64,000 nt of DNA, taken from assembly GCA_019635875.1 (NCBI GenBank), contig JAHBYP010000008.1, forward strand, positions 108,455 to 172,454, written 5' to 3'. Both the position numbers and the translations under genes were made by a program. The notes under the pieces are model-generated. The model made no database searches and was not told the origin of the DNA. It saw only the letters and a list, made by a program, of their open reading frames with translations. The DNA comes from Alphaproteobacteria bacterium. Lineage in GTDB: Bacteria > Pseudomonadota > Alphaproteobacteria > Reyranellales > Reyranellaceae. Positions 387 to 15,364 of this stretch are shown here, piece by piece (the first letter of the stretch is position 1; each line of letters starts with the position of its first letter).

Positions 387-1517
387 TCAGCCCACCAGCT
401 TCTGGCCGATCACCCGGCGCTTGCGGTTGATCTCGCGCAGGTACTCGATGCCCTCGGCGGCGACGGCGTCGCCGATCATCGAGTCGCCCTCGCCGGCCAG
501 CTCGTCCATGTCGAGCCACGGGCTGTACACGTGCCGGGTGCGCTCGGTGATGATGCCGGCCTTCAGGAGAGTCTTCACCAGCACGCGGAAGATGTTGGTG
601 CTTTCCTTCATCGAGTTCTTGCGGCTGTTGCTGCCGAAGCGCTCGCGGATCGCCTCGCGCACCCATTGCGGATCGAGCCCGAACTCCTCGTAGATATACG
701 GGCGCTGGCTGATGCTGGTGAGGTTGAACAGCAGCGACTCGAAGACGTGCGCCGCCCAGTCCTCGACCTTGTCGTGCTCCTTCGGCGTCAGGTTGGGCAG
801 CGTGCGGTCGGCCCAGATCTTGCCGAACTTGTGGTGGAAGGCCTCGTCGGTCATCACCAGTTGCACCAGCCGCTTCAGAAGCGGATCGCGCGTATAGGCG
901 TGCGTGTCGGCGAAGGCGCCCATGGCGAGGCCCTCGAGCATGATCTGCATGCCGACCAGCTTCTTGTAGACGATCGGGCTGAGCACGATCTCGTTGAGGA
1001 ACTTCGCCAGCTCCGGGCTGCAGGGATAGGGCGTGCCCCAGCGCGCCTTGATGTAGCGGCCGAAGCCGGCGACGTGGCGGGCTTCCTCGCGCGCCTGGTT
1101 GGCGGCGTATTCCTGCGCGCCGGGATCCAGCAGGATGTCGCACAGCGACGCCGACAGCGACAGCGCGCCCTGTTCGCCGTGCAGGATGCCGGACATGCGG
1201 AAGCGCGTGATGTTGTTGGCCAGGCGGATCTTCTGGCCCTCGTCCAGCCTGTCGCCCACCGCGCTCTGCAGCTCCGGCACGCGCTCGGGCGGCATGATAT
1301 ATTCCTTCGTCACGTCGAAGGGCGTGGCGTAGTCGAGATAGGCCGGGTTGAACGGATCCCAGAAATGATCGTGCGTCGCGCCGATGATGCCGTCGAAGGC
1401 ATCCGAGCGCGTATCGTAGCGATCGACCTCGATCATCGCCGGGAAATCGTCGGGGGCCACCACCCGGTAGGCCGGGTCGCGCGTGATGTGCTGGTCGTCT
1501 CGGAACGAGCCGCTCAT
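387..1517 (-). CDS. Ferritin-like diiron oxygenase family protein (AurF-like fold)
   Basis: Two E...ExxH diiron motifs are present (HGEQGA ... REEARHVAGF and MLEGLA ... TDEAFHHKFG), and the protein looks all-helical. The start is set at MSGSF (1517) because GGAGGAAG lies 2-3 nt upstream. The track start at 1529 is itself part of that RBS. Confidence 0.75.
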   Translation of the reverse strand: MSGSFRDDQHITRDPAYRVVAPDDFPAMIEVDRYDTRSDAFDGIIGATHDHFWDPFNPAYLDYATPFDVTKEYIMPPERVPELQSAVGDRLDEGQKIRLANNITRFRMSGILHGEQGALSLSASLCDILLDPGAQEYAANQAREEARHVAGFGRYIKARWGTPYPCSPELAKFLNEIVLSPIVYKKLVGMQIMLEGLAMGAFADTHAYTRDPLLKRLVQLVMTDEAFHHKFGKIWADRTLPNLTPKEHDKVEDWAAHVFESLLFNLTSISQRPYIYEEFGLDPQWVREAIRERFGSNSRKNSMKESTNIFRVLVKTLLKAGIITERTRHVYSPWLDMDELAGEGDSMIGDAVAAEGIEYLREINRKRRVIGQKLVG

Positions 1518-1574
1518 CGCTTCCTCCATGGGTACGCGCCGCTCTCCCGGCGGCTGATGCGGGCAGACTAGACT

Positions 1575-1595
1575 CGTTTGACGTTAACGTAAACG
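1575..1595. promoter_or_regulatory. AT-rich imperfect palindrome, candidate operator in a divergent promoter region
   Basis: The sequence is CGTTTgACGTTAACGTAAACG. The core ACGTTAACGT is a perfect 10-bp palindrome flanked by complementary CGTTT/AAACG arms. An AACGTAAACGTAAA direct repeat overlaps it. It is a conspicuous AT island 58 nt upstream of the diiron gene start. Confidence 0.3.
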
Positions 1596-1736
1596 TAAAT
1601 CTCACGCCGAAACCAGGACGCCGACAACAGCGCCCCCGCGCACATCCCGCACCGGCTGCAGGCACGCCCTCTTTTTGGTCACGCGACTTCGGAGGTTCCG
1701 GCGCTCAAGTATTCTGCGTTGGCAACGGAGATCCCC

Positions 1737-2009
1737 ATGACCAGGCCTCGCGATCAGGTTGAAGCCCGCCGTCGCTTCCTCGCCAGCTGCGGCAGGTTTG
1801 CATTGATCACCCCGCCGGCGATGACCGTCCTGCTCTCGAGCACCGCCCAGAACTACGCGGCCGCGCAATCCGGCGGTGCCGGCGGCTCGCTGCCCAGGCA
1901 GCAGGGCAACAACGGCTGGGGCAACGGCGGATCCGACGGCGTCCCGGGCAAGTCCGGCAGCAATCCCGGCCCGCAGCAGCCCAGCATGAAGTCCGACACG
2001 CAGCGCTGA
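1737..2009 (+). CDS. Small Tat-signal protein with a Gly/Asn/Ser/Pro-rich mature region (hypothetical)
   Basis: The ORF reads MTRPRDQVEARRRFLASCGRFALITPPAMTVLLSSTAQNYAAAQ / SGGAGGSLPRQQGNNGWGNGGSDGVPGKSGSNPGPQQPSMKSDTQR. It has a twin-arginine motif (RRRFL), a hydrophobic stretch and an AxA-like site. GGAG lies 6 nt upstream of the ATG at 1737. The track start at 1719 is TTG. Confidence 0.5.
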   Translation: MTRPRDQVEARRRFLASCGRFALITPPAMTVLLSSTAQNYAAAQSGGAGGSLPRQQGNNGWGNGGSDGVPGKSGSNPGPQQPSMKSDTQR

Positions 2010-3155
2010 TCAGGCAAGCCGGCGCAGGCGCGCGAGCCCGGCTCCCGCGCCTTTCTTGCCGAGGAAGCGCGCCAGGTGACGGCAGCGCCAGCCGAAGGCG
2101 CTGCCGCTTGATCCATGAAGCGCGCGCATGCGATGCCAGGCGAGCGGACCGCTCAGATTGCCCCATGTCACGCCGATCCAGTCGAGCACGGGCGATGCCG
2201 CCTGCAGCTCGCAACGCAGGCCATGCAGCCGGCTTCGCAGACCGGGTCTTCGCGACAGCGGCCACGACGGTCCGAACAGCCTGGTGGCGGCCAGCACATA
2301 GGCACGCAGCGCAGCGCCCAGCCGATGCGCCTCGAGCCGCGCCTCGATGAACTTCCAGTCGATCGAACCGCCAAAGCTCCGCGCCAGCATCGAGAATTCG
2401 TGGAGCTGGGAAACCGGCATCTCCCCGCGATAGTAGTGGCCAAGATGATGAATCTGCGCGTGGAGAAAATTATGCACCACGCGATCCGTCGGCGATGGAA
2501 CGAAGAAGCGCACGCCGTCCGCTTCGTGCGGCGTTGCCCGCTCGCGCACCTCGGCGGCCCGCAGCAGGTGTCGCGGATCGACCAGCTCGAGGTGCAGGTC
2601 GACCGCGGCGGGACTGCCTGACCGGGCGAAATCGCCGAAAGCGTGATGCTCCTCGCCGTAGCCGCGCGCCAGGATGTAGCCCTTGCGGTTCAGCACGGCG
2701 ATCGCAGTGTCGCGGGCGGCGGCCGGCACCAGCAGGTCGATGTCGCGCATCATGCGCGCGCCGATGTCGGGATAGGGTCCGGCGAACAGGGTCAGCGCCC
2801 CCTTGAGAAGCATGGGCTCGATCGCAGCTTCGTTCAGGGCTCCGACCAGCTCGACGATCTGCGCTCGAATCACGTGGTTGCGCTCCCCGTTCAGGCGATG
2901 CAGCACCTGCAGGTAGTCCACGACCTCCGGGGGCATGTTCGAGCGCAGCGGCGAGGCATCGAGTGCCGTCCACAGCGCCGGCGTCAGCAGATGTTGATTG
3001 GCGAGCCCGAGCAACGGCGTCCAGTCGGCGGGAAGCGCCTGGCCGCGAAGCGCCGAAGCCAGGGCGCGCACCGTGCCGGCCTGCGCCCTTACCGGCACAG
3101 CTGACGCACCTCGGCGACCGCGGCGTCGAGCGAAGACAGCGGCAGCTCGTAGCAC
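2010..3155 (-). CDS. Uncharacterised nucleotidyltransferase (NTP_transf_5-like)
   Basis: It carries the MMRDIDLLVPAAARD nucleotidyltransferase signature and is about 350-380 aa long. The track start overlaps the upstream gene by 67 nt. An in-frame GTG at 3071 would instead leave a 17-nt gap. Confidence 0.75.
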   Translation of the reverse strand: MLRAAAVFARRRGRRGASAVPVRAQAGTVRALASALRGQALPADWTPLLGLANQHLLTPALWTALDASPLRSNMPPEVVDYLQVLHRLNGERNHVIRAQIVELVGALNEAAIEPMLLKGALTLFAGPYPDIGARMMRDIDLLVPAAARDTAIAVLNRKGYILARGYGEEHHAFGDFARSGSPAAVDLHLELVDPRHLLRAAEVRERATPHEADGVRFFVPSPTDRVVHNFLHAQIHHLGHYYRGEMPVSQLHEFSMLARSFGGSIDWKFIEARLEAHRLGAALRAYVLAATRLFGPSWPLSRRPGLRSRLHGLRCELQAASPVLDWIGVTWGNLSGPLAWHRMRALHGSSGSAFGWRCRHLARFLGKKGAGAGLARLRRLA

Positions 3156-4423
3156 TCGACCCGACCGATCCAGGCAATCAGCGCATCGAGATTGGCGGCA
3201 TCGAGCGTGCCGGAGAGGCAGTAGACTTCCGGCAGCAGACGCTCGAGCGCCCGGGCGCGGGACAGCGGAACGAGTCGCGTCTCATGGGCGGGATGGTAGT
3301 GGGGAAAGACGAGCCATCGAACCGGGACGATGGGCTCGTCGGCGGCCCACGGCACATCGCGGCCGGGCCTCAGATACTTGGCGACCACGCCATCGGGGCG
3401 CGACCATTCCGGCAGCGCCGCAAGCATCGGAAAGCGTGACGCCAGCACGGCATAGGAACCGCGCTTGACGCAAAGCCCGGTCGGCAGGGCCGCCACCCCC
3501 GGCGGATCGCCCGTCAGCAGCGTCGTGTCGTCGCTCATCATGTCGAAGCCGCTGGCCGCGAGGCCTGCGGACAGCGTGCTCTTGCCGCTCCCGGCATGTC
3601 CCGGCAGCAGCAGGGCGCCGCCGGCGACGGCGAGTGCGCCGGCGTGGACGACGCACAGGCCGCCGCAGTGCTCGACCGCAAGCTGGGTCAGCACGGCTCG
3701 CAAGGCGACCGCCGCCTGGGCCGCGCTCGGCGCGCCGCCGATCACGTGGCCAGCCACGACGATTTTCACGCCCTGCGCGCGTTCGACCATCGCGATGTCG
3801 ATGGCGGGTCCGGGTGCCGTGGCCCAGTTCGACAGCAGGGGTTGCACACTTTCCCTCAGGGCGGCCGAAGCGAAGGCAACGCGAAATCTCACGTCGCGTA
3901 ACGAATAGTGCTCTCGAACGGCTGAAGAGAGCGCAGGCGCAGCTTCTACCCGAACGGAAGAAATCGCCGCTGCCGTCGCAGGCCGGCGGGTTCGCCATTG
4001 CCGGAACACCTCGCCGACAAGGCGCGTGGCCTCCTCGCTTGAAAGGCCGTGCTCGGCACGGAGCCGATGCTTGACGGAGCCCAGGGAACTTTCCTCTTCC
4101 AGCAAGCTCCAGACCAGGGCGGCACCGGCATTGAGGCGGTACAGGCGCCGGGCGTCCGGGTCGAGCAGCAGGCCTTCACCCTCGACAAAATGCAGGCTGG
4201 GTCGAGCACCAGCGAAGGCTGGCCGGTCTCGTTCGTCAGCCGCGGCTTCGAAGCCCGTCGTGCAAGCCATGCCCAAGGCTGTCGCGAAAACGGGCGGCGG
4301 CACCAGCGACAAAAATGAGGCAATTGCGCTTCGCCAGCCAGCCGCTACAGTCGCGCGGACGGGCGCGTGACGCCTCAACAAGGCGCCGGGGGAGAAGCCA
4401 GGAGTGGCGACAGTCGCGATCAA
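3089..4423 (-). CDS. PqqD/RRE-like domain fused to an HprK-related P-loop kinase
   Basis: The N-terminal part has a PqqD-family pattern: SLHFVEGEGLLLDPDARRLYRLNAGAALVWSLLEE..LSSEEATRLVGEVFRQW. The C-terminal part has an HprK-type core: VHAGALAVAGGALLLPGHAGSGKSTLSAGLAASGFDMMSDDTTLL. An alternative ATG at 4270 would remove the 20-nt head-to-head overlap with the divergent gene. Confidence 0.8.
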   Translation of the reverse strand: MIATVATPGFSPGALLRRHAPVRATVAAGWRSAIASFLSLVPPPVFATALGMACTTGFEAAADERDRPAFAGARPSLHFVEGEGLLLDPDARRLYRLNAGAALVWSLLEEESSLGSVKHRLRAEHGLSSEEATRLVGEVFRQWRTRRPATAAAISSVRVEAAPALSSAVREHYSLRDVRFRVAFASAALRESVQPLLSNWATAPGPAIDIAMVERAQGVKIVVAGHVIGGAPSAAQAAVALRAVLTQLAVEHCGGLCVVHAGALAVAGGALLLPGHAGSGKSTLSAGLAASGFDMMSDDTTLLTGDPPGVAALPTGLCVKRGSYAVLASRFPMLAALPEWSRPDGVVAKYLRPGRDVPWAADEPIVPVRWLVFPHYHPAHETRLVPLSRARALERLLPEVYCLSGTLDAANLDALIAWIGRVECYELPLSSLDAAVAEVRQLCR

Positions 4424-6854
4424 GGACGTCCCGGCTGCGCGTCTCTTTCCCCTGTTTCTCGTCTGCCTGGCCTCGATCGCCTACGAGATCTCGCTCACCC
4501 GCTTCTTCGCCATCGCCAGCTGGTCGGAGTACGGCTACTGGGTGATCTCCATGACCATGGCCGGGCTGGCGGCCAGCGGCGTGGTCGCCTCGCTGTTCTC
4601 GCGCCTGCTGGTGCGCTCGCTGCCGATCCTGCTGCCGGCGCTGCCGATCCTGATGCTGCTGGCGGCGTCGCTGGGCTGGGTCTGGGTCACCATCGTGCCG
4701 TTCAACCCGCTGGAGCTGCAGAACAAGCAGCTATGGTACGACCAGCTCTTGAACATCGCGCAGTACTACGCCGCGATCTTCCCGTTCTTCTTCATGGTCG
4801 GGCTCTACGTCTCGGCCTATTTCGTGCTCTATAACTACCGCATCGGCCGGGTCTACGCCTTCGACCTGGCCGGCGCCGGGCTGGGCGCGGCGCTCCTGCT
4901 GGCGCTGATGTTCGTGGTGCATCCGTTCTGGCTGGTGCCCTGCCTGCTGCCGGTTCTGGCGCTCGCCGCCTGGCTCGAGATCTCGCCGCTCTGGCCGCGA
5001 GGAAGAGTACGACTCGCCGCGCTCGCCGCGTTGGCGGTTTCGCTGGCCGCGACCGCGCTGCTGGGCCAGCCGCGCATCAACGAATACAAGGAAGTCTTCG
5101 CGCCCATGAACACCCAGGGCGCGCGCGTGCTGGCCACGGTGACCTCGCCCAAGGGCCTGTACCAGCTGCTCGACAATTTCACCGAGCGTCTCGACACCGA
5201 CATCTCCAACAACCCCGACGTCATGGCCGGCGCCACCATGCCGCGCGCCTATGGCCTGTACTCCGACGGCAACCGCCTGGCCGCGCTGCCGCGCACCAGC
5301 GAGGTCGACACGCGCTACTTCGTCGCCGCGCTCGACTCCCTGCCCTACCGCCTGCGCCCGCCCGAAAAGACGCTGCTGCTGGGCGCCGCCGGCGGCTTTC
5401 GCATCCACGAGGCGCTGCGCGCCGGCGCCCGGCGCATCGTGACATTGGAGCCCGACGCGGCGTTGCGCGGCGCGCTCGAACGCGGCATCGGTCCGGCACC
5501 GCCGTTTCCGGTCGACGAGCGGGTGATCATCCGCGACACCAGCCCGCTGGCGACGCGAGTGGTGGCGCGCGACGGCCCGTTCGACGTCATCGACGTCACG
5601 CGCGAGTTCCTCGCGCAGTCCGACACCAACCGCGCCGCGCTGTCGGTCGAGGTGCTCGGCGACTATGTCGGCATGCTCGGACCCGGCGGCACGGTGTCGA
5701 TCCCGGTGTCGATCCGGGAGTTCACGGTCTATGCCGTGAAGATGTTCGCCACCGCGCGCGGGGCCCTGCGTCGCGCCGGCATCGCCGAGCCCGACCGGCA
5801 CATCGTCATCTATCGCTCGGCGTGGAACGTGCGCATCCTGCTCAGCGCCACGCCATGGACGGCGGATGCGATCGCGGCGGTCGAGATATTCTGCGACGAG
5901 CGCTCCTTCGACGTCGTCTTTCCGCCGGCGCGCGAGGGCGTGAAGCGCACCATCTTCAACGAGCTGCCGGTCGTGTCGTTCGACGTCACCCGGGCGCAGC
6001 CCGCCGGTTCGGATCCGCTGAGCGAGGAGGCCGGCGCGGCGGTCGCCGGCCAGGCCTCGCCCTATCACGCCTTCTTCAAGCTGACGCCGCCCAGCCTCGA
6101 TCGGCCCTACTTCAACGCCGTCCTGCCGCTGACCGAGGTGTCGACCATCCTCGACCGCATCGAGCTCGTGCCACGCGAGGAGCTGGTCTACCTGATCAAT
6201 CTCGCGGTGCTGGCGCAGGCCCTGGTGATCGCCGCGCTGGTGCTGCTGATGCCGCTGCTGACGCGGCGCGGCGACGCGCTGCCGATCGGCCGCTTCGCCA
6301 AGTCGGCGGTCTATTTCGCCGGGCTGGGCCTGGGTTTCCTGACCCTCGAGATCTACCTGATCGAGAAGGCCTCGCAGTACCTGCACGACCGCGTCTTCGC
6401 CTTCGGCCTGGTGCTGGCCATGATGCTGGTCTGCTCCGGCGCGGGCAGCCTGCTGGCCGAGCGCGTGCGCGCCAGGCCGCGCACCTGGCTGGGCATCGCC
6501 GTCATGACCGTGCTGGTGTGGTGCGAGGTCGCCTTCGTCTGGCTCGACCCGCTGCTGATCGCCACCGCCACCGAGCCGATGGCGGTCAGGATCGCCATCC
6601 TGGTGGCGATCGCCCTGCCGGTTTCGGTCGCGCTGGGCATGCCGATGGCGCTGGGGCTGAGCCAGTTCTACGGCAACCGCCTGGCCTTCCTGCCGTGGGC
6701 CTGGGCGGTCAACGGCGCCTGCTCGATCATCTCGACGCCGCTGGCCAATCTCCTGGCGATCTCGATCGGGCTCAAGGCGCTGCTGCTGCTCGGCGCCTTC
6801 CTCTATTCGGTTGTCGTCTTCACCCTCCCGGCCGACCGCATCCCGGCCAGGTAG
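4404..6854 (+). CDS. Polytopic membrane protein with a central spermidine-synthase-like (SAM-fold) domain
   Basis: Multi-TM bundles at both the N- and C-terminus share a similar motif (YEISLTRFFAIASW... and FLTLEIYLIEKASQY...). The central soluble part has LLLGAAGGFRIHEALRAGARRIVTLEPD and FDVIDVT, typical of spermidine synthase/methyltransferase folds. The start is GTG. Confidence 0.8.
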   Translation: MATVAIKDVPAARLFPLFLVCLASIAYEISLTRFFAIASWSEYGYWVISMTMAGLAASGVVASLFSRLLVRSLPILLPALPILMLLAASLGWVWVTIVPFNPLELQNKQLWYDQLLNIAQYYAAIFPFFFMVGLYVSAYFVLYNYRIGRVYAFDLAGAGLGAALLLALMFVVHPFWLVPCLLPVLALAAWLEISPLWPRGRVRLAALAALAVSLAATALLGQPRINEYKEVFAPMNTQGARVLATVTSPKGLYQLLDNFTERLDTDISNNPDVMAGATMPRAYGLYSDGNRLAALPRTSEVDTRYFVAALDSLPYRLRPPEKTLLLGAAGGFRIHEALRAGARRIVTLEPDAALRGALERGIGPAPPFPVDERVIIRDTSPLATRVVARDGPFDVIDVTREFLAQSDTNRAALSVEVLGDYVGMLGPGGTVSIPVSIREFTVYAVKMFATARGALRRAGIAEPDRHIVIYRSAWNVRILLSATPWTADAIAAVEIFCDERSFDVVFPPAREGVKRTIFNELPVVSFDVTRAQPAGSDPLSEEAGAAVAGQASPYHAFFKLTPPSLDRPYFNAVLPLTEVSTILDRIELVPREELVYLINLAVLAQALVIAALVLLMPLLTRRGDALPIGRFAKSAVYFAGLGLGFLTLEIYLIEKASQYLHDRVFAFGLVLAMMLVCSGAGSLLAERVRARPRTWLGIAVMTVLVWCEVAFVWLDPLLIATATEPMAVRIAILVAIALPVSVALGMPMALGLSQFYGNRLAFLPWAWAVNGACSIISTPLANLLAISIGLKALLLLGAFLYSVVVFTLPADRIPAR

Positions 6855-6869: not shown

Positions 6870-7721
6870 ATGGTCCCGCTGACCCGCCGCACGCTGATCG
6901 CCCAGGGCGCCGCCGCGGCCCTGGCCGCGCCGGCCCTGGCGCAGCCCTTCGGCGGCGGCTGGCACTACGATCGCTATGTCGCGGCGATGCGCGCCAGCGA
7001 GCGGCGCATCGGCATGAACAAGCCGACCTTCGACGGCGTCATGCGGCGGCGCGACCAGGCGTTGCGCATCGTCGAGAGCTACCTGCGCGGCAAGTTCGGC
7101 GCGGCCGATCCGCACTCCTTGCGCGCCTATGCCGAGGTGCCGCGCGAGTACTTCCACTACAACTACGCCGGCCCTTTCGATTTCGGCCACGCCGCCTACG
7201 AGGCCAACGCCCATCCCTGGGCGATCGGCTACGGCTCGGCGCTGTCGGACTATCTCGGCCAGATGTACATGACCCAGCTGTCGAGGCCGCTGCCGGGCGA
7301 GAGCGCGCTCGAGATCGGTACCGGCTCGGGCTACCAGATCTCCATCCTCTCGCGAATCTGCGCCAAGGCCCGCTCGATCGAGATCATCGAGCCGCTGGGC
7401 CGCGCGGTGTCGAAGATCTTCAAGCCGCTGGGCTTCGACAACGTCGCCACCAGGGTGGGCGACGGCTACTTCGGCTGGCCGGAGGAGAAGGACGGCTTCG
7501 ACATTATCATGGTGACCTGCGTGGCGCAGCACGTGCCGCCGCCGTTGCTCGCCCAGCTCAAGCCCGGCACCGGCCGGCTGATCATCCCGGTAGGCCAGCC
7601 CTTCCGCCGCCACCAGGTGCTCTACGTCTACACCAAGGACCGCGATGGCAAGATCCACAGCAGGCGCGACGTCGGCGTGTATTTCATTCCGATGACCGGC
7701 CGCATCTCGCAGGGGCGTTAG
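6870..7721 (+). CDS. Protein-L-isoaspartate O-methyltransferase (PIMT) family protein with Tat-type signal peptide, paralog 1
   Basis: The N-terminus is MVPLTRRTLIAQGAAAALAAPALAQP. The PIMT core shows EVPREYF, SALSDY..MYMTQL, SAM motif LEIGTGSGYQ, GDGYFGWPEEKDGFDIIMVT and GRLIIPVG. Confidence 0.85.
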   Translation: MVPLTRRTLIAQGAAAALAAPALAQPFGGGWHYDRYVAAMRASERRIGMNKPTFDGVMRRRDQALRIVESYLRGKFGAADPHSLRAYAEVPREYFHYNYAGPFDFGHAAYEANAHPWAIGYGSALSDYLGQMYMTQLSRPLPGESALEIGTGSGYQISILSRICAKARSIEIIEPLGRAVSKIFKPLGFDNVATRVGDGYFGWPEEKDGFDIIMVTCVAQHVPPPLLAQLKPGTGRLIIPVGQPFRRHQVLYVYTKDRDGKIHSRRDVGVYFIPMTGRISQGR

Positions 7722-7893: not shown

Positions 7894-8769
7894 ATGACTC
7901 TGACCCGACGGCGCGCGTTGGTGACAGCCGCCGGAGCCACCCTGGCGGCGCCGGCGATCGTGCACGCCCAACCCACACCCTGGACCTATGCCGCCTTTGT
8001 CGCCGCGATGAAAGCCAGCGGCCGCAACGTCAAGATCTCGGCCGAGGACTGGCAGGTGATGCAGAAGCGCCGGCCCGGCGCGCTCAACACCATCGCCAGC
8101 GTGCTGCACCACCATTTCGGCGCCGCCGATCCGGAGATCGTGCGCGCCTTTCGCGAGGTGCCGCGCGAGTACTACCACTACGACTATGCCGCCAACGCCG
8201 ATTTCGCCGCCGTCGCCTACGAGGCGGAGTCCAAGCCCTGGCGCATCGGCCTGGGCTCGGCGCTGTCGGATTATCGCGGCCAGGCCTACATGACCCAGCT
8301 GTGCAGGCCGACCGCCGACAGCGTCGCGCTGGAGATCGGCACCGGCTCTGGCTTCCAGATCTCGATCCTCTCGCGCATCGTCCGCAAGGCCTGCTCGATC
8401 GAGATCATCGAGCCGCTGGGCAAGGCGGTGGCGCGCATCTTCGCGCCTTTGGGCTTCGACAAGAACCTCGAGACACGCATCGGCGACGGCTTCTACGGCT
8501 GGCCCGAGGAGAAGGACGGCTTCGATCTGATCATGGTCACCTGCGTGGCGCAGTACGTGCCGCCGCCGCTGCTCAAGCAGCTCAAGCCCGGCGGCAGGCT
8601 GGTGATCCCGATCGGCCAGCCTTTCAAGCGCGAGCAGTTCCTCTACGTCTTCAGCAAGGACGCCGACGGCAAGGTGCATTCCAAGAAGGATCTCGGCGTC
8701 TACTTCATCCCGATGACCGGCGCGATGCAGAAGGAGCCGCCGCCGCCGCCCGAGCCGGCGAAGAAGTAG
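7894..8769 (+). CDS. Protein-L-isoaspartate O-methyltransferase (PIMT) family protein with Tat-type signal peptide, paralog 2
   Basis: The N-terminus is MTLTRRRALVTAAGATLAAPAIVHAQP. The core motifs match paralog 1 (EVPREYY, LEIGTGSGFQ, GDGFYGWPEEKDGFDLIMVT, GRLVIPIG). By eye it is about two-thirds identical to paralog 1. It has a Pro-rich C-terminal tail, KEPPPPPEPAKK. Confidence 0.85.
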   Translation: MTLTRRRALVTAAGATLAAPAIVHAQPTPWTYAAFVAAMKASGRNVKISAEDWQVMQKRRPGALNTIASVLHHHFGAADPEIVRAFREVPREYYHYDYAANADFAAVAYEAESKPWRIGLGSALSDYRGQAYMTQLCRPTADSVALEIGTGSGFQISILSRIVRKACSIEIIEPLGKAVARIFAPLGFDKNLETRIGDGFYGWPEEKDGFDLIMVTCVAQYVPPPLLKQLKPGGRLVIPIGQPFKREQFLYVFSKDADGKVHSKKDLGVYFIPMTGAMQKEPPPPPEPAKK

Positions 8770-8772
8770 CGC

Positions 8773-10290
8773 ATGCGCCTGGTCCTGCGGCTCGTCGCGG
8801 CGGCGCTGCTGGCGACGCTGGCGCTGTCGGCGCGGGCCGGTGAGACGCGCATCTCGCTGGTGCTGATCTGCGACATCTACAACATGAACGAGGATGCCGG
8901 CCGCGGCGGCATGGCCCGCGTCGCGGCGGTGGTGAAGGCCGAAAAGGCGCGCGCGCCGCACGTGCTGGTGGCGCACGCCGGGGACACCTTCTCGCCGTCG
9001 CTGATGTCGGGCTTCGACAAGGGCGCCCACATGGTCGACCTGCTCAACATGATGCCGATCGACGTCTTCGTGCCGGGCAACCACGAGTTCGATTTCGGCC
9101 CCGACGTCTTCCTCGAGCGCCTGCGCGAGGCACGCTTCCCGGTCTACGCCGCCAATCTGCGCGAGGCCGACGGCTCGGTCATCCCCGGCATCGTCGATTC
9201 GCGCATCCACACCTATGGCGAGGTGAAGGTCGGCGTCATCGGGCTGACGGCGGAGGACTCCCACAGGAAGTCGCAACCCGGCCGGCTGAAGATCGCCGGG
9301 ATGCTGGACACCGCGAGCGAGCAGGCCGCGAAGCTGCGCCGCGAGGGCGCCGACATCATCGTGCTGGTCTCGCACTCCAACCGCGAGATCGACGGGGCCC
9401 TGGTCGATGCCGGCATCGCCGACGTGATCCTGTCGGGCGACGACCACGATCTCTACCTGCGCTACAACGGCCAGACGGCGATCGTCGAGGCGGCGATGGA
9501 CGGCATCTTCGTCGCCGTCGTCGACCTCCAGGTGAGGATCGACACCGCCGCGGGCGGCCGGCGCAAGGTCGCGTGGTGGCCGCGCTTCCGCATCATCGAC
9601 ACCGCCGACGTGGCGCCCGACCCCGATGTCGCGGCGCGCGTCGCGGTCTACGAATCGCGGCTCTCGAAGTCGCTCGACATCGCCATCGGCCGCACCGCCA
9701 CCGAGCTCGACAGCCGCAACGCCGCGGTACGCGGCGGCGAGGCCGCCATCGGCAACCTGTTCACCGACGCGCTGCGCGCCGCCACCGGCGCCGATGCGGC
9801 GCTGCTCAACGGCGGCGGCTTCCGCGGCAACCGCGTCTATCCGGCGGACAGCCAGATCACCGAACGCCACATCCTGGCCGAGCTGCCGTTCCTCAACCGC
9901 GCGCTGGTCCTGGAGGTCAGCGGCAAGGCGCTGCGCGCGGCGCTCGAGGCCGGGCTCGCCGGCGCCGAGAACGAGGTCGGCCGCTTCCCGCAGGTCTCCG
10001 GCATGACCATCCGCGCCGACCTGACGCGGCCCGACGGCGATCGCATCGTCGCCCTGCTGGTCGGCGGCGCGCCGGTCGAGCCTGACAGGCTCTACAGGCT
10101 GGTGACCAACGACTTCCTGGCGCGCGGCGGCGACGGCTACACGGCGCTGGTCGGCGCGCGCATGCTGGTCGGGCCCAACGACGCGCTGCTGGTTTCAAGG
10201 CACGTCGTCGAGCACATCCGCAGGCTGGGCACGGTGTCGGCGAAGCTCGAGGGCCGCGTGATCGTCGCCCGCGGGCGCGCGCCGCGCTGA
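8773..10290 (+). CDS. Secreted bifunctional metallophosphatase/5'-nucleotidase (UshA family)
   Basis: It has a signal peptide (MRLVLRLVAAALLATLALSARAGE) and the metallophosphatase motifs GDTFSPS and GNHEFDFG. A C-terminal 5'-nucleotidase domain is present. The start lies 3 nt after the PIMT2 stop. Confidence 0.85.
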   Translation: MRLVLRLVAAALLATLALSARAGETRISLVLICDIYNMNEDAGRGGMARVAAVVKAEKARAPHVLVAHAGDTFSPSLMSGFDKGAHMVDLLNMMPIDVFVPGNHEFDFGPDVFLERLREARFPVYAANLREADGSVIPGIVDSRIHTYGEVKVGVIGLTAEDSHRKSQPGRLKIAGMLDTASEQAAKLRREGADIIVLVSHSNREIDGALVDAGIADVILSGDDHDLYLRYNGQTAIVEAAMDGIFVAVVDLQVRIDTAAGGRRKVAWWPRFRIIDTADVAPDPDVAARVAVYESRLSKSLDIAIGRTATELDSRNAAVRGGEAAIGNLFTDALRAATGADAALLNGGGFRGNRVYPADSQITERHILAELPFLNRALVLEVSGKALRAALEAGLAGAENEVGRFPQVSGMTIRADLTRPDGDRIVALLVGGAPVEPDRLYRLVTNDFLARGGDGYTALVGARMLVGPNDALLVSRHVVEHIRRLGTVSAKLEGRVIVARGRAPR

Positions 10291-11170: not shown

Positions 11171-12514
11171 TCAGCGCTGGGCGCGGTTGCGCAGGAAAGT
11201 CTCGCGGTCGGCGGGCTTGTCGATGTGCCCGGCCAGCCGCTGCCACAGATCCTCGGCGCCGCTCGCCGCCGCCCGCTCGCGGCGCATCAGCAGGGTCGCG
11301 ATGGGCCCGATGTGGCGCGCCAGCTCGGCCTGGGCGCGATCGAGATCGGCCTGGGCGATGGAGGCTGTCGCTGCGCTGGGCTGCGGCGCGATCAGTGTCG
11401 AGGCGATCGTGCCCGAGACGCCGGCGCCGGTCCGCGACGCCTTGAGCGCGTCGCGCAGGAAGGCCTCGCGCTGCTCGGCCTTGTCGATGCTGGTGCTCAG
11501 GCTGCGGCAAAGCTCCTCGATCGAGCTGGTGCGACCGCTGGCGCTGCGCACGAGATAGCCGGCGATCGGCCCGACATAGGCCGCCAGCCTGCGCTCGATC
11601 TCCTGCAGGTGCGGGCCGATCACCGCCGCCGGCGACGGGGCGACCACCGTGGCGTCCGATGTCCCGGCCGCCGCCGGCGCCTGGCCGCGCAGGGCGTTGC
11701 TCAGCGCGGCGTTCATCGCGTCGGCCGACTCGAAGCGCCGCGCCGCATCGCGCGCCAGCGCCCTGGTCATGAAGGCGACGAGTGCCGCCGGCGCCGTCGG
11801 CAGATGCTTCGACAGCGGCGCCGGCTCGCCGTAGAGCAGCTGGTAGGTGACCTCGTGGAAGTTGCGCCCGGCGAAGGGCCGCACGCCGGTCAGCAGCTCA
11901 TAGAACACGGCGGCGGTCGAGAACAGATCGCTGCGCGCGTCGACCTCCTCGCCGCGGCACTGCTCGGGCGACATGTAGTTGGGCGTGCCGATCAGCGCGC
12001 CGGTCTGCGTCAGCGACGAGCCGCCGACGCGCGAGATGCCGAAATCGGTCACCTTCACCCGCCCGTCGCCCGTAAGCAGCACGTTGGCCGGCTTGATGTC
12101 GCGATGCACGACGCCCTGGCCGTGGGCGCAGGCCAGCGCGTCGAGCATCTGGCGCGCGATCATCGCCGAGGCGTCGATCGGCAGGCGCGCGCCGCCGTCG
12201 ATCACTTGCGCCAGGCTGCGCCCGGCGACGAACTCCATGGCGATGTAGGGATCGTTGCCGTGCAGCGCGAAATCGTAGATCGCCACGATGTTGCCGTGGG
12301 AGCAGCGGCCGGCCGCCTGCGCCTCGCGCTGGAAGCGCTCGACGAACGCGGCGCGGTCGTCGCCCTCGAGCAGGTCGGTGTTCACCAGCTTCAGCGCCAC
12401 CGGGCGGTTGATCATGGGATCGTGGGCGAGATAGATCACGCCCATGGCACCCTTGCCGATGGTCGATTCGATGACGTAGCGGCCGATCTTCTGCGGCGCC
12501 GAAGACGGTGACAT
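11171..12514 (-). CDS. Hanks-type serine/threonine protein kinase, soluble, with two C-terminal repeats of about 60 aa
   Basis: Kinase motifs present are GKGAMGVIYLA, ALK, HRDIKPANVLL, DFGIS and SPEQ. No TM segment is seen. The C-terminus repeats the pattern L..Y(V/I)GPIA..L.R........E.L...L...IDK...RE.FLR twice. Confidence 0.9.
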   Translation of the reverse strand: MSPSSAPQKIGRYVIESTIGKGAMGVIYLAHDPMINRPVALKLVNTDLLEGDDRAAFVERFQREAQAAGRCSHGNIVAIYDFALHGNDPYIAMEFVAGRSLAQVIDGGARLPIDASAMIARQMLDALACAHGQGVVHRDIKPANVLLTGDGRVKVTDFGISRVGGSSLTQTGALIGTPNYMSPEQCRGEEVDARSDLFSTAAVFYELLTGVRPFAGRNFHEVTYQLLYGEPAPLSKHLPTAPAALVAFMTRALARDAARRFESADAMNAALSNALRGQAPAAAGTSDATVVAPSPAAVIGPHLQEIERRLAAYVGPIAGYLVRSASGRTSSIEELCRSLSTSIDKAEQREAFLRDALKASRTGAGVSGTIASTLIAPQPSAATASIAQADLDRAQAELARHIGPIATLLMRRERAAASGAEDLWQRLAGHIDKPADRETFLRNRAQR

Positions 12515-12519
12515 CGCTC

Positions 12520-13392
12520 TTAGCTACCCAGCATCTTCATCGCATTGGCGAGGCTGCGCCGCATGCGGTTGAACGATTCGGCGAGCGAGGCGATCTCGTC
12601 GCGGCCCGTCACCTCGACCTCCGGCGCATCCATGTTGCCCAGGCTGACATCGTTGGCGGCCGCCGACATCTGCCGCACCGGCTTGACGACGATGTAGTGC
12701 AGCATGACGTTGAGCAGCGCGATCACCACGGCGAACACGGCGGCCAGCGCGCCGACATAGAGCATCAGCATCCGGTCGGCCTGCTTGTCGACGACGGCCA
12801 TCGGCACCGAGGCGACCTGCGCGCCGATGGTCTCGTTGAGCTTCCAGCCGAAGCCGTTGTTGGGCCCGTAGAGGTCGACCATGGTCTGCGGCGCCTCCTT
12901 CGCCGTGGTGTGGCAGATCAGGCAGGCCGGATTGGTGATGCGCAGCGGCTTGGCCAGCACGAGCACCTGTCCGGTGGGCGTGTCGCGCGTCGTGACGACT
13001 TCCGTCAGCTTGGGATCGTTGCGGAACCTTTCGATGATGTCGGCTTCCCAATCGACGGCACGATCCGCCGGATTGGTCGGATTGAGCGCGGCTTCCTTGT
13101 AGGCATAGTCAGGGAACTGCTTCTGCATGCTGCGCCACACGGTCTGCGCCGACCAGCTCGGCACCGAGTGCGGCAGGAAGCGCGCCTTCATCTGCTCGCG
13201 CAGCAGCGGCTCGACCTCGGTCGCGGTGTAGCCGCGCACGGCCTGTGCCTGGGCCATGATCATGCTGGCGTCGCGCAGCACCTGCTGGCGGCCGCTGTCG
13301 CGCAACGCCTGGTTGGCGAGGAAGGCCGCCAGCCCCAGCCCGACCAGGAAGGCCACGGCCATCACGATGTTGAACTTGGCCTTGAGTCCCAT
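12520..13392 (-). CDS. Membrane transducer: periplasmic DUF3365/Tll0287-like c-type heme domain plus HAMP, with no output domain
   Basis: The order is N-terminal TM, periplasmic domain with the heme-c motif CLICH (nt 12910-12924), second TM, then a HAMP-like segment (VVKPVRQMSAAANDVSLGNMD...DEIASLAESFNRM). The protein ends right after HAMP. Its stop lies 5 nt from the kinase start. Confidence 0.8.
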   Translation of the reverse strand: MGLKAKFNIVMAVAFLVGLGLAAFLANQALRDSGRQQVLRDASMIMAQAQAVRGYTATEVEPLLREQMKARFLPHSVPSWSAQTVWRSMQKQFPDYAYKEAALNPTNPADRAVDWEADIIERFRNDPKLTEVVTTRDTPTGQVLVLAKPLRITNPACLICHTTAKEAPQTMVDLYGPNNGFGWKLNETIGAQVASVPMAVVDKQADRMLMLYVGALAAVFAVVIALLNVMLHYIVVKPVRQMSAAANDVSLGNMDAPEVEVTGRDEIASLAESFNRMRRSLANAMKMLGS

Positions 13393-13410
13393 GACGAAGC
13401 GCTCCCCCGA

Positions 13411-14478
13411 CTAGCGGACGGTTGCCAGGCGACTGGCCTGTTGCGGCGTCAGCCGGCCCGTGGGCTCGGCCATGACCTGCATCTGGAAGCGGCGGATCGC
13501 CGCCCGCGTCTCGGGCCCGAACACGCCGTCCAGCTGCCCATTGTAGTACCCCAGCAGTTTCAGCGCCTCCTGCATGCGCCGGCGATGCTCGAGCGTCATC
13601 AGGTCTTCTTCAGGCATGGTCAATTCGGGCGCGGGCGGCGTCGCGACGGGCGGCGTCGCGACGGGCGGCGTGGCGACGGGCGGCGTCGGCGGTGTGGGCG
13701 GTGTCGCCACCACAGGCGGCGCCACCGGCGCGAAGGGGCGGCCGACGATCAGCCCGGCGGTCTTGGGCTGGCGCACCACGGCGATGGCGCTGGCCGAGGT
13801 CGAGCCGAGCCGCTCCTGCAGCGCGCTCACGAAGGCGCCGTTCTCGATCATGGTCGCGCTGCCCAGCGTCGCGACCAGCGCCGCCGACATCGGCGTGCCG
13901 GCCGGTCCGGGAGAGGCCTCGAACACGGTGATGGCGGCCAGCCCGTCCGACGCCGCGCTCTTCGCCACGGTGTCGAAGCCGGTCGGCCTGGGCCCCGAAG
14001 GCGGCATGACATCGAGCGCCACCACCGAGGGGCCGGCCTTGCTGCGCGACAGCGCGTCGTAGACCGCCTTGACCAGAATGCCCTGGGTGAACAGGTCGGT
14101 GGGCCGTTCCAGCGTCGCCGAGACCGGCAGCAGGAAGGCCCGGTCGTTGAGGCTGGCGCCGCGCCCGCAGATGTAGACGAAGGCGCCGGCGCCCGGCGCC
14201 TTGGTCAGGCGGCCGCTGAAATCGGCCAGCGCCGCGTCGAAGCCGCCGCCGCTGACGTCGTTGCGGTCGACGACGTCATAGCCCGCCGCGCGCAGCCGGT
14301 CGGCCACCGCCCGCGCGGCCGGGGGACAGGCCGGCACCGCCGGCTGCACGGTGTAGCCGCCATTGCCCATCACGAGGGCGACCCGCTGCGGGCCCTGGGC
14401 GGCGGACGGCTGGATCGCGACCAGCGAGGCCACGACAACCAACGCACCTGCGGTGAGATTGCGGACAGCCAGCGTCAT
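13411..14478 (-). CDS. Secreted caspase-fold (peptidase C14-like) protein lacking the catalytic dyad, fused to a PG_binding_1 domain
   Basis: The signal peptide is MTLAVRNLTAGALVVVASLVAIQPSAAQG. The caspase-like core starts RVALVMGNGGY. The expected YxGHG box reads YICGRG and the expected LDACR box reads LDVMPP. A PVATP repeat linker follows. The C-terminus, LKLLGYYNGQLDGVFGPETRAAIRRFQ, is a peptidoglycan-binding domain. The start is set at 14478 to avoid overlap with the upstream gene. Confidence 0.8.
   Translation of the reverse strand: MTLAVRNLTAGALVVVASLVAIQPSAAQGPQRVALVMGNGGYTVQPAVPACPPAARAVADRLRAAGYDVVDRNDVSGGGFDAALADFSGRLTKAPGAGAFVYICGRGASLNDRAFLLPVSATLERPTDLFTQGILVKAVYDALSRSKAGPSVVALDVMPPSGPRPTGFDTVAKSAASDGLAAITVFEASPGPAGTPMSAALVATLGSATMIENGAFVSALQERLGSTSASAIAVVRQPKTAGLIVGRPFAPVAPPVVATPPTPPTPPVATPPVATPPVATPPAPELTMPEEDLMTLEHRRRMQEALKLLGYYNGQLDGVFGPETRAAIRRFQMQVMAEPTGRLTPQQASRLATVR
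13633..13692 (-). repeat. In-frame 15-bp tandem repeat encoding (PVATP)n
   Basis: gggcggcgtcgcgac occurs three times (the third with one mismatch), followed by a degenerate fourth unit. It lies inside the linker of the caspase-fold protein. Confidence 0.8.
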
Positions 14479-14518
14479 GGCGTGAGCCCCTTGAACGATT
14501 TCGATTCTCGGCATGTCA

Positions 14519-15364
14519 CTATGCCTCGTCGACCACGGCATTGCGCAGCGTGCCGACGCCGGAAACCTCGACCTCGATCACGTCGCCCGCCTTCATCCAC
14601 AACGGCGGCGTACGGCCGGCGCCGACGCCATGCGGCGTGCCGGTGGCGATGACGTCGCCCGGTTCCAGCGGCGTGATGGTCGAGAGGTACTGGATCAGGG
14701 TCGGGATCGAATAGATCAATTGATCGACGGTATCGCGCTGCACTTCGGCGCCATTGAGGCGCGTCACGAGGGTGAGCGTCGCCGGGTCGGCAATCTCGTC
14801 GGCCGTCGTCATCCACGGCCCGAGCGGGCCGCTGCGCGGGAAGTTCTTGCCGGCGGTGACGGAATGCTTCTGGAAGTCGCGCACCGAGCCGTCGAGGAAG
14901 CAGCTGTAGCCGGCCACGTGCTTCAGCGCGTCCTCGGCGCGGATGTGGCGTCCGCCGTTGCCGATGATCACGGCCAGCTCGCCCTCGAAGTCGAGCTGGG
15001 TCGAGGCGCGCGGCCGCAGCAGCGTGTCGCCGTGCCCGACCAGGGTGTTGTGCAGGCGGGAGAAGACGCTGGGATGAGCCGGCAGCTCGCGCGCCATCTC
15101 GGCGGCGTGGCTGCGGTAGTTCAGGCCGACGCACAGGATCTTGTCCGGTGCCGTGATCACCGGGTCGAAGGCGATGTCCTTGAGCGCGTAGTCCGGCGAC
15201 GCACCGCGGGCGATGCGATCGAGTTCCCGCAGGGCGCCGCCGGACAGCGCCGCGCGCAGGGTCGGGAATCGGTCGCCCACCCTGTTGGCCAGATCGACCA
15301 CGCCCTCGCCGGCGACGGCGCCGTACAGCGCGCGGCCCTCGGCCCGGAAGCTCAGCAGTTTCAT
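14519..15364 (-). CDS. Fumarylacetoacetate hydrolase (FAH) family protein
   Basis: The N-terminus is MKLLSFRAEGRALYGAV. The FAH core shows KILCVGLNY..H, FEGELAVIIG and GDVIATGTPHGVG. Confidence 0.85.
   Translation of the reverse strand: MKLLSFRAEGRALYGAVAGEGVVDLANRVGDRFPTLRAALSGGALRELDRIARGASPDYALKDIAFDPVITAPDKILCVGLNYRSHAAEMARELPAHPSVFSRLHNTLVGHGDTLLRPRASTQLDFEGELAVIIGNGGRHIRAEDALKHVAGYSCFLDGSVRDFQKHSVTAGKNFPRSGPLGPWMTTADEIADPATLTLVTRLNGAEVQRDTVDQLIYSIPTLIQYLSTITPLEPGDVIATGTPHGVGAGRTPPLWMKAGDVIEVEVSGVGTLRNAVVDEA

Follow-up and report, generated by a model that had tools for sequence, protein, structure and literature searches.

A small peptide gene, a kinase gene, and a nucleotidyltransferase gene at positions 1737-4270 of a 64,000-nucleotide stretch of alphaproteobacterial DNA (NCBI GenBank assembly GCA_019635875.1, contig JAHBYP010000008.1, positions 108,455 to 172,454; family Reyranellaceae) appear to form a self-contained cassette for a peptide that is made on ribosomes and modified after its translation (RiPP). 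The whole stretch is called the window here, and positions are counted from its first letter. We put the probability of this reading at roughly 65%. The cassette would comprise a precursor, an HprK-like kinase fused to a RiPP recognition element (RRE), and a nucleotidyltransferase (NTase), and the small peptide is probably the substrate of the two enzymes. The best explanation appears to be a minimal Gram-negative variant of the linear polyphosphorylated peptide (LPP) type of phosphorylation pathway, with a leader that resembles a signal peptide. An earlier note on this DNA had described the kinase and NTase as a peptide-tailoring pair with no obvious precursor gene and no annotated substrate. 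The lack of a precursor gene and substrate is not supported, as the open reading frame (ORF) at 1737-2009 keeps its place next to the pair in all orthologous loci examined; the same ORF came out of the conservation check on small ORFs in 1600-2010 that the note had proposed. The genes and their parts are listed below, with Tat standing for twin-arginine translocation.

1737..2009, + strand: candidate precursor gene, 90 aa, NCBI "hypothetical protein" (P0061), conserved beside the enzyme pair.
1767..1865, + strand: leader or Tat-signal-like region, residues 11-43 (RRRFL...TPP...AAA), delimited by family conservation.
1866..2006, + strand: predicted core, 47 aa, type A (x-S-G...GNNGWGNGG.DGVPG...), delimited by family conservation.
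1869-1871, + strand: Ser45, invariant, putative phosphosite from conservation and analogy with LPP Ser3.
3089..4270, - strand: gene for the fusion of RRE and HprK-like kinase, 393 aa, annotated by NCBI as "PqqD family peptide modification chaperone" (P0001).
3986..4198, - strand: RRE (PqqD-like winged-helix) domain, residues 25-95, from Pfam PqqD, AlphaFold, TbiB1 superposition, and profile.
3092..3919, - strand: kinase body, residues 118-393, an alpha/beta middle domain and a P-loop domain, from TIGR04352, Foldseek, and profile.
2010..3098, - strand: NTP_transf_5 nucleotidyltransferase gene, 362 aa, "nucleotidyltransferase family protein" (P0313), PF14907.

Gene linkage connects the small peptide with the enzyme pair. 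The small ORF adjoins the pair in 10 of the 10 distinct orthologous loci with readable DNA. Because each locus has its own set of flanking genes, what is conserved is a self-contained cassette of three to four genes, which occurs in unrelated genomic contexts. The close orthologous loci come from several Reyranella metagenome-assembled genomes (MAGs), one Rhodospirillales MAG, and two further Alphaproteobacteria MAGs, and a profile of four small ORFs finds a copy about 100 nt or less from the pair in each of them. Two of the first three neighbourhoods have a small ORF convergent to the NTase gene, and one of these two also has a small ORF directly upstream of the kinase gene; the third, available without DNA, lacks the NTase. 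The reverse search, which started from the peptide, led to P0133 and P0080, both on long contigs and directly beside PqqD and NTP_transf_5 genes. The layout of kinase, NTase, and convergent small ORF (89 aa) is kept by a kinase relative with 39% identity (P0170), and locus L031 keeps the kinase-NTase-small ORF layout.

The candidate precursor (MTRPRDQVEA-RRRFLASCGRFALITPPAMTVLLSSTAQNYAAA-QSGGAGGSLPRQQGNNGWGNGGSDGVPGKSGSNPGPQQPSMKSDTQR) belongs to a family of at least 297 proteins, which were found by a search with the peptide alignment and are all labelled "hypothetical"; no Pfam or NCBIfam model covers the family. At the codon level the small ORF is under purifying selection, with third-position changes dominating and a ratio of synonymous to non-synonymous changes of about 2:1. 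The leader has the consensus RRxFLxxCGxFAxITPPxxxxLLxSxxQNxAxA, in which R11, R12, F14, L15, G19, F21, A22, T25, P26, P27, L32, L33, N39, A41, and A43 are invariant. In 117 of 118 family members, RR and AxA delimit a span of exactly 33 residues. Leaders of type A are 91% identical to one another and 67% identical to those of type B, whereas the cognate kinases of the type A leaders are only about 50% identical.

Downstream of the leader, x-S-G opens all 118 cores that could be split. Type A cores, including the window copy, follow GNNG[WF]GNGG.DGVPG.SG.N..PQ.PS, type B cores follow TTY[FY]VPRDDG...GGVKPGDT[VI]C....C, and a third type (C) occurs in locus L007. Ser45 is the sole Ser/Thr that is invariant across the three types. 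Types A and B have in common only the leader and the x-S-G..G.SL segment. Two loci (L003 and L009) each carry one type A and one type B gene beside a single enzyme pair, suggesting that recognition and modification should involve these shared parts.

Two loci have an unusual gene arrangement. The PqqD-kinase gene of L009, from an Alphaproteobacteria MAG, is split into two frames at 1725-2817 (profile matches at 1725-1871 and 1873-2817), and a frameshift, a pseudogene, or faulty assembly could account for this; the locus has an intact NTase gene and two intact peptide genes. A 100-aa family member (P0161, at 6001-6303 of L027/L028 in Reyranella MAG GCA_050250475.1) is an orphan copy flanked by an AraC-type regulator gene and a beta-lactamase-fold gene. 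The enzyme pair of the same genome lies on another contig (L001), and P0161 could be a precursor supplied in trans.

By inspection, the leader fits the layout of a Tat signal, with RRRFLA, a moderately hydrophobic stretch, and AxA at a fixed distance. The ordinary Tat signals of two protein-L-isoaspartate O-methyltransferase (PCMT) paralogues encoded in the window have the same layout. The fixed T15-P16 offset of the leader was considered as a special recognition mark and rejected, because these Tat signals also have Pro at position 16. We advance as a tentative and somewhat doubtful proposal that the N-terminal region could be both a genuine Tat signal and an RRE leader, which the RRE-kinase would hold until the peptide is phosphorylated and nucleotidylated or glycosylated, and would then release to Tat and signal peptidase I.

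The earlier note took the fusion of an RRE to a kinase to imply a specific peptide client, which is well founded. The fusion itself, which the note had recognized from the letters, is borne out by Pfam PqqD, TIGR04352, and the RRE fold. The longest ORF for the kinase gene is 3089..4423 on the - strand (444 aa). Orthologue alignment and NCBI annotation set the start at ATG 4270; conservation in the alignment of 31 orthologues begins about 25 residues into the resulting 393-aa protein, and the stop codon is TAA at 3091-3089. Pfam PqqD (PF05402) matches residues 84-146 of the 444-aa ORF (nt ~3986-4174; 31.3 bits, gathering score 23.4, E 2.5e-7), and NCBIfam TIGR04352 (HprK_rel_A) matches residues 246-442 of the same ORF (E 1.4e-28). 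Weaker NCBIfam matches are TIGR04355 and the HPr(Ser) kinase model. TIGR04353 does not match the gene product, and lasso_PqqD_Strm is the only, weak, NCBIfam match of the fused PqqD domain.

The AlphaFold model of the 393-aa protein (pLDDT 86.4, pTM 0.81) has a disordered linker between the RRE and the kinase body. Its first domain contains strands at residues 25-29, 32-37, and 42-46 followed by helices at 48-59, 63-74, and 78-95, which is the three-strand/three-helix fold that the note had suggested looking for. It superposes on leader-bound TbiB1 (5v1u_B) with a root-mean-square deviation of 2.2 A over 71 columns and a TM-score of 0.67, and the orthologue profile reaches the lasso RREs by sequence as well (TfuB1 6e-7, TbiB1 3e-6). 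In the kinase body, the Walker A motif GHAGSGKST lies at nt 3575-3601, exactly where the note had placed the P-loop, and an Asp pair (D247-D248) lies about 20 residues past it, as in HprK/P. G227, G229, K230, S231, T232, D247, and D248 are invariant in the orthologue alignment, and the invariance of both motifs is consistent with an active kinase. Foldseek matched the kinase body to ATP-dependent PEP carboxykinase (E 1e-6) and to HprK/P 1kkl (E 3.5e-3), and the orthologue profile matched HprK structure 3tqf at 9e-4. HPr and phosphotransferase system (PTS) genes were found neither among the window genes scanned nor in any orthologous neighbourhood examined, which excludes a role in carbon regulation; the PTS/HPr linkage of orthologues that the note had set against its own reading was thus not seen, and a short conserved ORF is linked to them instead.

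The NTase gene overlaps the kinase stop by 10 nt, starting at GTG 3098 according to NCBI annotation (its longest ORF is 2010..3155 on the - strand). The note had reported an NTP_transf_5-type enzyme with a DIDLLV signature beside the kinase, in agreement with the PF14907 match (150.5 bits, E 8e-44) and the catalytic motifs LKG and RDIDLLV, the latter with D119 and D121. Seven residues (K99, G100, R115, D119, D121, H169, and H213) are invariant across 39 NTase homologues. One NTase cluster (P0402) has a source name of Vineibacter terrae. No solved structure was found to match the NTase by sequence. The AlphaFold model (pLDDT 93.9) is a minimal NTase core flanked by helical domains, and the closest solved folds are MenT1 and the O-nucleotidylyltransferases ANT(2'')-Ia (aminoglycoside) and LnuA (lincosamide), with the ribitol-phosphate transferase FKRP as a more distant match.

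MenT1 is the top Foldseek match of the NTase model (E 2.9e-4, target-normalised TM-score 0.66), and the lower GC content at third codon positions (GC3) of the module relative to its surroundings hints at horizontal acquisition. Both would agree with a MenT-type toxin-antitoxin or defence pair in which the NTase is a toxin controlled by phosphorylation. However, MenT1 resembles the NTase only across the minimal core that the two share, with 15% identity, and PADLOC gave no match for any of the three cassette proteins. The RRE fusion, the fusions of relatives to RiPP enzymes described below, and the conserved, secreted-looking peptide do not fit a toxin-antitoxin model either, and we regard this explanation as extremely improbable.

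Several gene fusions were found among relatives of the kinase. With a cut-off of E<=1e-3, an exhaustive profile search gave 17,407 relatives; at E<=1e-30 there were 1,077 representatives. The top 150 are mostly 380-430 aa and are matched over their full length, with the RRE fused to the kinase in most, indicating that this fusion is a common architecture. Some longer relatives are NTP_transf_5-PqqD-kinase fusions, which tie the NTase functionally to the kinase. Others are fusions of an MbnB/TglH/ChrH (MNIO, PF05114) domain to PqqD-kinase, which tie the family to RiPP chemistry.

Distant relatives were surveyed at a few loci. Beside the kinase gene, loci of Acidobacteria, Desulfuromonadales, and Bacteroidota contain short ORFs whose N-terminus is RRxFL- or signal-like. 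Locus L011 (293-4856, Acidobacteria MAG JADZCN010000026) contains an NTP_transf_5 gene, two short ORFs with an RRxF leader, and an 866-aa ORF with the MNIO (PF05114) domain in frame with PqqD-kinase. The two short ORFs have Arg/Pro-rich tails (…AAQYSTATSEPRPRPRPRPRRRRR) and cores without Cys, so the MNIO enzyme would need a non-Cys substrate. A Desulfuromonadales locus has an ORF with an RREFLRK leader directly 5' of the fusion gene, and a small convergent ORF of one Bacteroidota locus is signal-like at its N-terminus.

A different gene arrangement occurs in locus L030 (5-4926, JGI metagenome 3300080687), where a GT4 glycosyltransferase gene and a gene for a 415-aa protein lie directly 5' of an 822-aa NTase-PqqD-kinase fusion. 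Besides its conventional Tat signal, the 415-aa protein has a weak match of the choice-of-anchor-R or lectin-like kind. This locus is a hint that secreted proteins of full size may be the targets of some family members.

The glycosyltransferase of L030 could also point to a non-peptide or cell-envelope target of the enzyme pair, such as a phospho-sugar or polysaccharide, with the small secreted protein as a co-regulated partner. LPP and paeninodin clusters sit within loci for capsular polysaccharide, and the NTase fold resembles small-molecule O-nucleotidylyltransferases and FKRP. However, the RRE is a peptide-binding domain and is here fused straight to the kinase, and polysaccharide genes flank the module neither in the window nor in most orthologous loci. 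An envelope target is therefore very improbable.

The rival explanation that we take most seriously is that the RRE-kinase serves mainly as a gatekeeper or chaperone of signal peptides, in the way that TorD and DmsD do for Tat substrates. It would bind the Tat-like leader of small secreted proteins, and at some loci that of large ones, and phosphorylation or nucleotidylation would be a checkpoint or regulatory mark with no natural product involved. The RRxFL motif is invariant, the leader has the layout of the ordinary Tat signals of the window PCMTs, and the core types are conserved in the manner of small proteins. The 415-aa protein of L030, with its conventional Tat signal encoded directly 5' of an NTase-RRE-kinase fusion, fits this explanation as well. 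We know of no Tat proofreading chaperone with an RRE fold or enzymatic domains, which counts against it. The catalytic residues of both kinase and NTase are invariant, and fusion to RiPP enzymes of the MNIO family speaks for covalent maturation. On this evidence a gatekeeper is unlikely, and modification of a precursor peptide remains the preferred reading.

The LPP pathway of Bacillota (LppA, LppK, LppB, LppS, LppD, and LppN) is the closest characterised system (Popov et al., Nat Commun 2026, May; PMC13381572). It includes an HprK-like kinase (LppK), a discrete RRE (LppB), an NTP transferase (LppN), a SipW-like signal peptidase (LppS), and an MsbA-like pump (LppD). LppK, working with LppB, adds as many as four phosphates to Ser3 in the linear core of 45 aa, and LppS, a signal peptidase of type I, cuts off the 27-aa leader with help from the RRE (PMC13381572). 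LPPs are described by their authors as restricted to Bacillota (PMC13381572).

Both systems encode an HprK-like kinase, an RRE, and an NTP transferase together with a linear precursor, and both lack a macrolactam cyclase. Their precursors are of similar layout, with a 27-aa leader and 45-aa core in LPP, and a 43-aa N-terminal region (the last 33 residues being the conserved leader) and 47-aa core in the window. Each has a Ser near the leader-core junction, which is phosphorylated in LPP (Ser3) and presumably in the window peptide (core Ser2). Leader removal is by a signal peptidase of type I in LPP and would be likewise in the window cassette. The RRE is a discrete protein in LPP, whereas it is fused to the kinase in the window. 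Unlike in LPP, neither a SipW-like (archaeal-type) signal peptidase I nor an MsbA-like pump is encoded beside the module in the window or in orthologous loci, and the nearest window transporter is an MFS protein 12 kb away. The leaders also differ (YxxPxVLxHQxIxFETxxS in LPP, and the Tat-like RRxFL...TPP...AxA in the window), as do the hosts, the cassette being found in Alphaproteobacteria with relatives in Acidobacteria, Desulfuromonadales, and Bacteroidota. The MNIO fusions of some relatives are a further difference from LPP.

The following mechanism can be proposed. The RRE domain would bind the strictly conserved N-terminal region of the 90-aa precursor, and the tethered P-loop kinase would phosphorylate a core Ser, perhaps repeatedly. 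The likeliest site is Ser45, the invariant Ser two residues past AxA. The NTP_transf_5 enzyme may then extend the modification by nucleotidyl transfer or by addition of a sugar to the phosphate. The Tat/Sec-like N-terminal region would route the modified peptide through general secretion, with cleavage by signal peptidase I. A signal-like leader that hands both steps to general secretion would account for the lack of dedicated protease and exporter genes.

Several findings weigh against this reading. Neither TAT_signal nor any other Pfam or NCBIfam model matched the leader at E<=10 among the alphaproteobacterial peptides; the clear Tat signals of the window PCMT paralogues likewise have no TAT_signal match at E<=0.01. 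Because no Tat profile matched, it is by its motif that the leader looks like a Tat signal. The [Y/W]xxP motif, to which the RREs of lasso and LPP systems bind, is also missing from the leader. The core types are well conserved rather than hypervariable, and the products could be small folded secreted proteins. The window precursor gene is convergent with the enzyme genes and is not co-transcribed with them. The P0010 locus and L012 have no adjacent NTase gene, and no obvious signal-like small ORF was seen in four other Bacteroidota loci (L014-L017). LppN was inactive in a heterologous host (PMC13381572), and PsmN of the pseudomycoidin pathway is the only experimental model for the NTase step.

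Lasso peptide tailoring is a second known system with related enzymes. HPr-kinase homologues (PadeK for paeninodin, PsmK for pseudomycoidin) phosphorylate the C-terminal Ser of the linear precursor, and the NTase-like PsmN adds a hexose to the phosphate in pseudomycoidin. The link of kinase and NTase to lasso tailoring, which the earlier note had drawn, is thus documented in the literature. An HPr-kinase homologue and an NTase-like enzyme are shared with the window cassette. The lasso RRE, in contrast, is a discrete B1 protein that serves protease and cyclase, and neither the Asn-synthetase-like cyclase nor the transglutaminase-like B2 protease was found among the window genes scanned or in the orthologous loci. 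The only PP-loop motif found in the window, considered as a possible lasso cyclase, belongs to NadE. Comparison of 26 window genes with Pfam gave no lasso cyclase or protease, radical-SAM enzyme, YcaO enzyme, or ABC exporter, in line with the note's statement that core RiPP enzymes are missing.

Since such kinases and NTases are tailoring enzymes in paeninodin- and pseudomycoidin-type clusters, the pair could be an orphan remnant or satellite of a lasso-type pathway, with its client encoded elsewhere and the small ORF unrelated to it. The orphan peptide copy of L027 would make action in trans possible. However, lasso cyclase and B2 protease are missing from the window genes sampled and from all orthologous loci examined, and the small ORF stays beside the pair despite differing flanks. 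Lasso kinases target a C-terminal Ser, whereas cores of the window family end in R, P, H, or Q. The RRE-kinase architecture is also a widespread stand-alone module. Such an orphan pair is very unlikely, and the adjoining peptide is the more plausible client.

The HPr-rel-A system of the TIGRFAMs/NCBIfam collection, which we take to consist of TIGR04352 (HprK-related kinase A) and TIGR04353 (PqqD family protein), has to our knowledge no assigned substrate. The note's reference to the HPr-rel-A/B models was correct, and TIGR04352 is the best NCBIfam match of the window kinase, which shares the same PqqD-kinase-NTase idea. The window kinase differs in scoring half of the equivalog cut-off (99.8 against 200 bits) and in having the PqqD domain fused, with TIGR04353 unmatched. 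Literature searches by accession (PF14907, TIGR04352, and TIGR04353) found nothing related, and a full-text search on ScmC (PF27840), presumably "SynChlorMet cassette protein C", found nothing relevant.

Signal peptides on RiPP precursors are known from bufferins, where a Sec signal peptide takes the place of a dedicated exporter and protease, and from the MNIO RiPP group of ChrA, MelA1, and DybA, whose precursors carry signal peptides for signal peptidase I or II. A general-secretion signal on the precursor would be shared with the window cassette, and an MNIO enzyme is fused in some relatives of the window family. In those systems the MNIO chemistry takes place on Cys, whereas the cassette has a bona fide RRE, a Tat-like signal, and predicted phosphoryl or nucleotidyl transfer. 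The bufferin signal is dispensable for modification, so a signal peptide need not double as a leader, which is a further point against the role proposed here for the N-terminal region. In the literature searched, no RRE-fused kinase paired with a Tat-like leader was found, and neither the MNIO landscape paper nor the structure-based RRE paper mentions kinases or NTases.

The cassette lies between two divergent neighbours, from which it is separated by the following regions.

1530..1736, no strand: intergenic region 5' of the precursor gene, divergent from an AurF-like gene; presumed precursor promoter, by position only.
4271..4403, no strand: intergenic region of 133 nt between the kinase operon and a divergent membrane-protein gene; presumed promoter.

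No consensus promoter was found in 1530..1736. A promoter and terminator scan around the cassette gave nothing above background, with no sigma-70-like consensus in 4271..4403. The head-to-head overlap and unclear start of the kinase gene described in the note were an artefact of the longest ORFs; with starts at ATG 4270 and GTG 3098 the overlap vanishes, and the kinase start lies 133 nt before the divergent gene at 4404. At the other end of the pair, the stop codons of precursor and NTase abut at 2007-2012 with zero spacer (TGA then TCA). It follows that the two transcripts either overlap or end within the opposite gene. At other loci, 43-85 nt lie between the two stop codons.

Codon usage differs between the module and its surroundings. 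The overrepresentation of A/T-ending codons that the earlier note had seen in the 5' half of the kinase gene is real (GC3 0.65-0.70 in the first 120 codons), but it is not confined to the kinase and affects the whole module. The kinase gene has a GC3 of 0.78, the NTase gene 0.81, and the peptide gene 0.87, all markedly low when compared with neighbouring genes (0.92-0.96) and with almost all other window genes (0.85-0.96). The overall GC content of the three genes equals that of the rest of the window. Horizontal acquisition may lie behind the low GC3, or else weak adaptation of the codons.

Other genes in the window were considered as possible parts of the system. An 816-aa polytopic membrane protein with a central soluble domain is encoded at 4404-6854 (+), divergent from the kinase operon. 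Neither Pfam nor NCBIfam nor PADLOC gave a match for it; a GxGxG stretch (GAAGGFRIHEAL...LEPD) of the methyltransferase or spermidine-synthase type can be seen by eye. The tandem PCMT paralogues at 6870-7721 and 7894-8769 (+) carry the Tat-type signals RRTLIAQG...ALAQ and RRRALVTA...VHAQ, and are followed by a signal-bearing 5'-nucleotidase/metallophosphoesterase at 8773-10290 (+). It is unusual for PCMTs to be periplasmic, and other systems use PCMT homologues to tailor RiPPs; the trio is not kept next to the module at other loci. At 387-1529 (-), divergent from the precursor gene, lies a gene for a di-iron protein similar to AurF or aldehyde-deformylating oxygenase (23.5 bits, below the 29.6-bit cut-off). 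The membrane protein, both PCMTs, the 5'-nucleotidase, and the AurF-like protein were all rejected as parts of the system, because none of their genes is conserved beside the module elsewhere. Farther away, a Ser/Thr protein kinase, a Tll0287-like HAMP protein, and a caspase-like (Peptidase_C14) protein with a peptidoglycan-binding domain are encoded in a row at 11171-14541 (-). They may form a signalling module and are unrelated to the cassette.

With these results, what looked like an orphan pair becomes a minimal but complete system of three genes on about 2.5 kb, and its candidate substrate has a name. The peptide family, at present without a profile model for its at least 297 members, is an annotation gap, and the NTase-RRE-kinase and MNIO-RRE-kinase fusions offer a route into NTP_transf_5 chemistry. 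If the cassette is confirmed, peptide polyphosphorylation, so far described only for Bacillota (LPP and lasso tailoring), would reach a Gram-negative family of about 1,000 clusters at 50% identity. The RRE would then read a leader that resembles a signal peptide, and RiPP maturation would be joined to general secretion in a way unlike that of bufferins. Should the Tat signal and the RRE leader prove to be one and the same, a substrate would be assigned to the long uncharacterised PqqD-HprK-NTase ("HPr-rel-A-like") gene sets, and their products would be widespread periplasmic or secreted phosphopeptides of Gram-negative bacteria and the first RiPP class exported by Tat.

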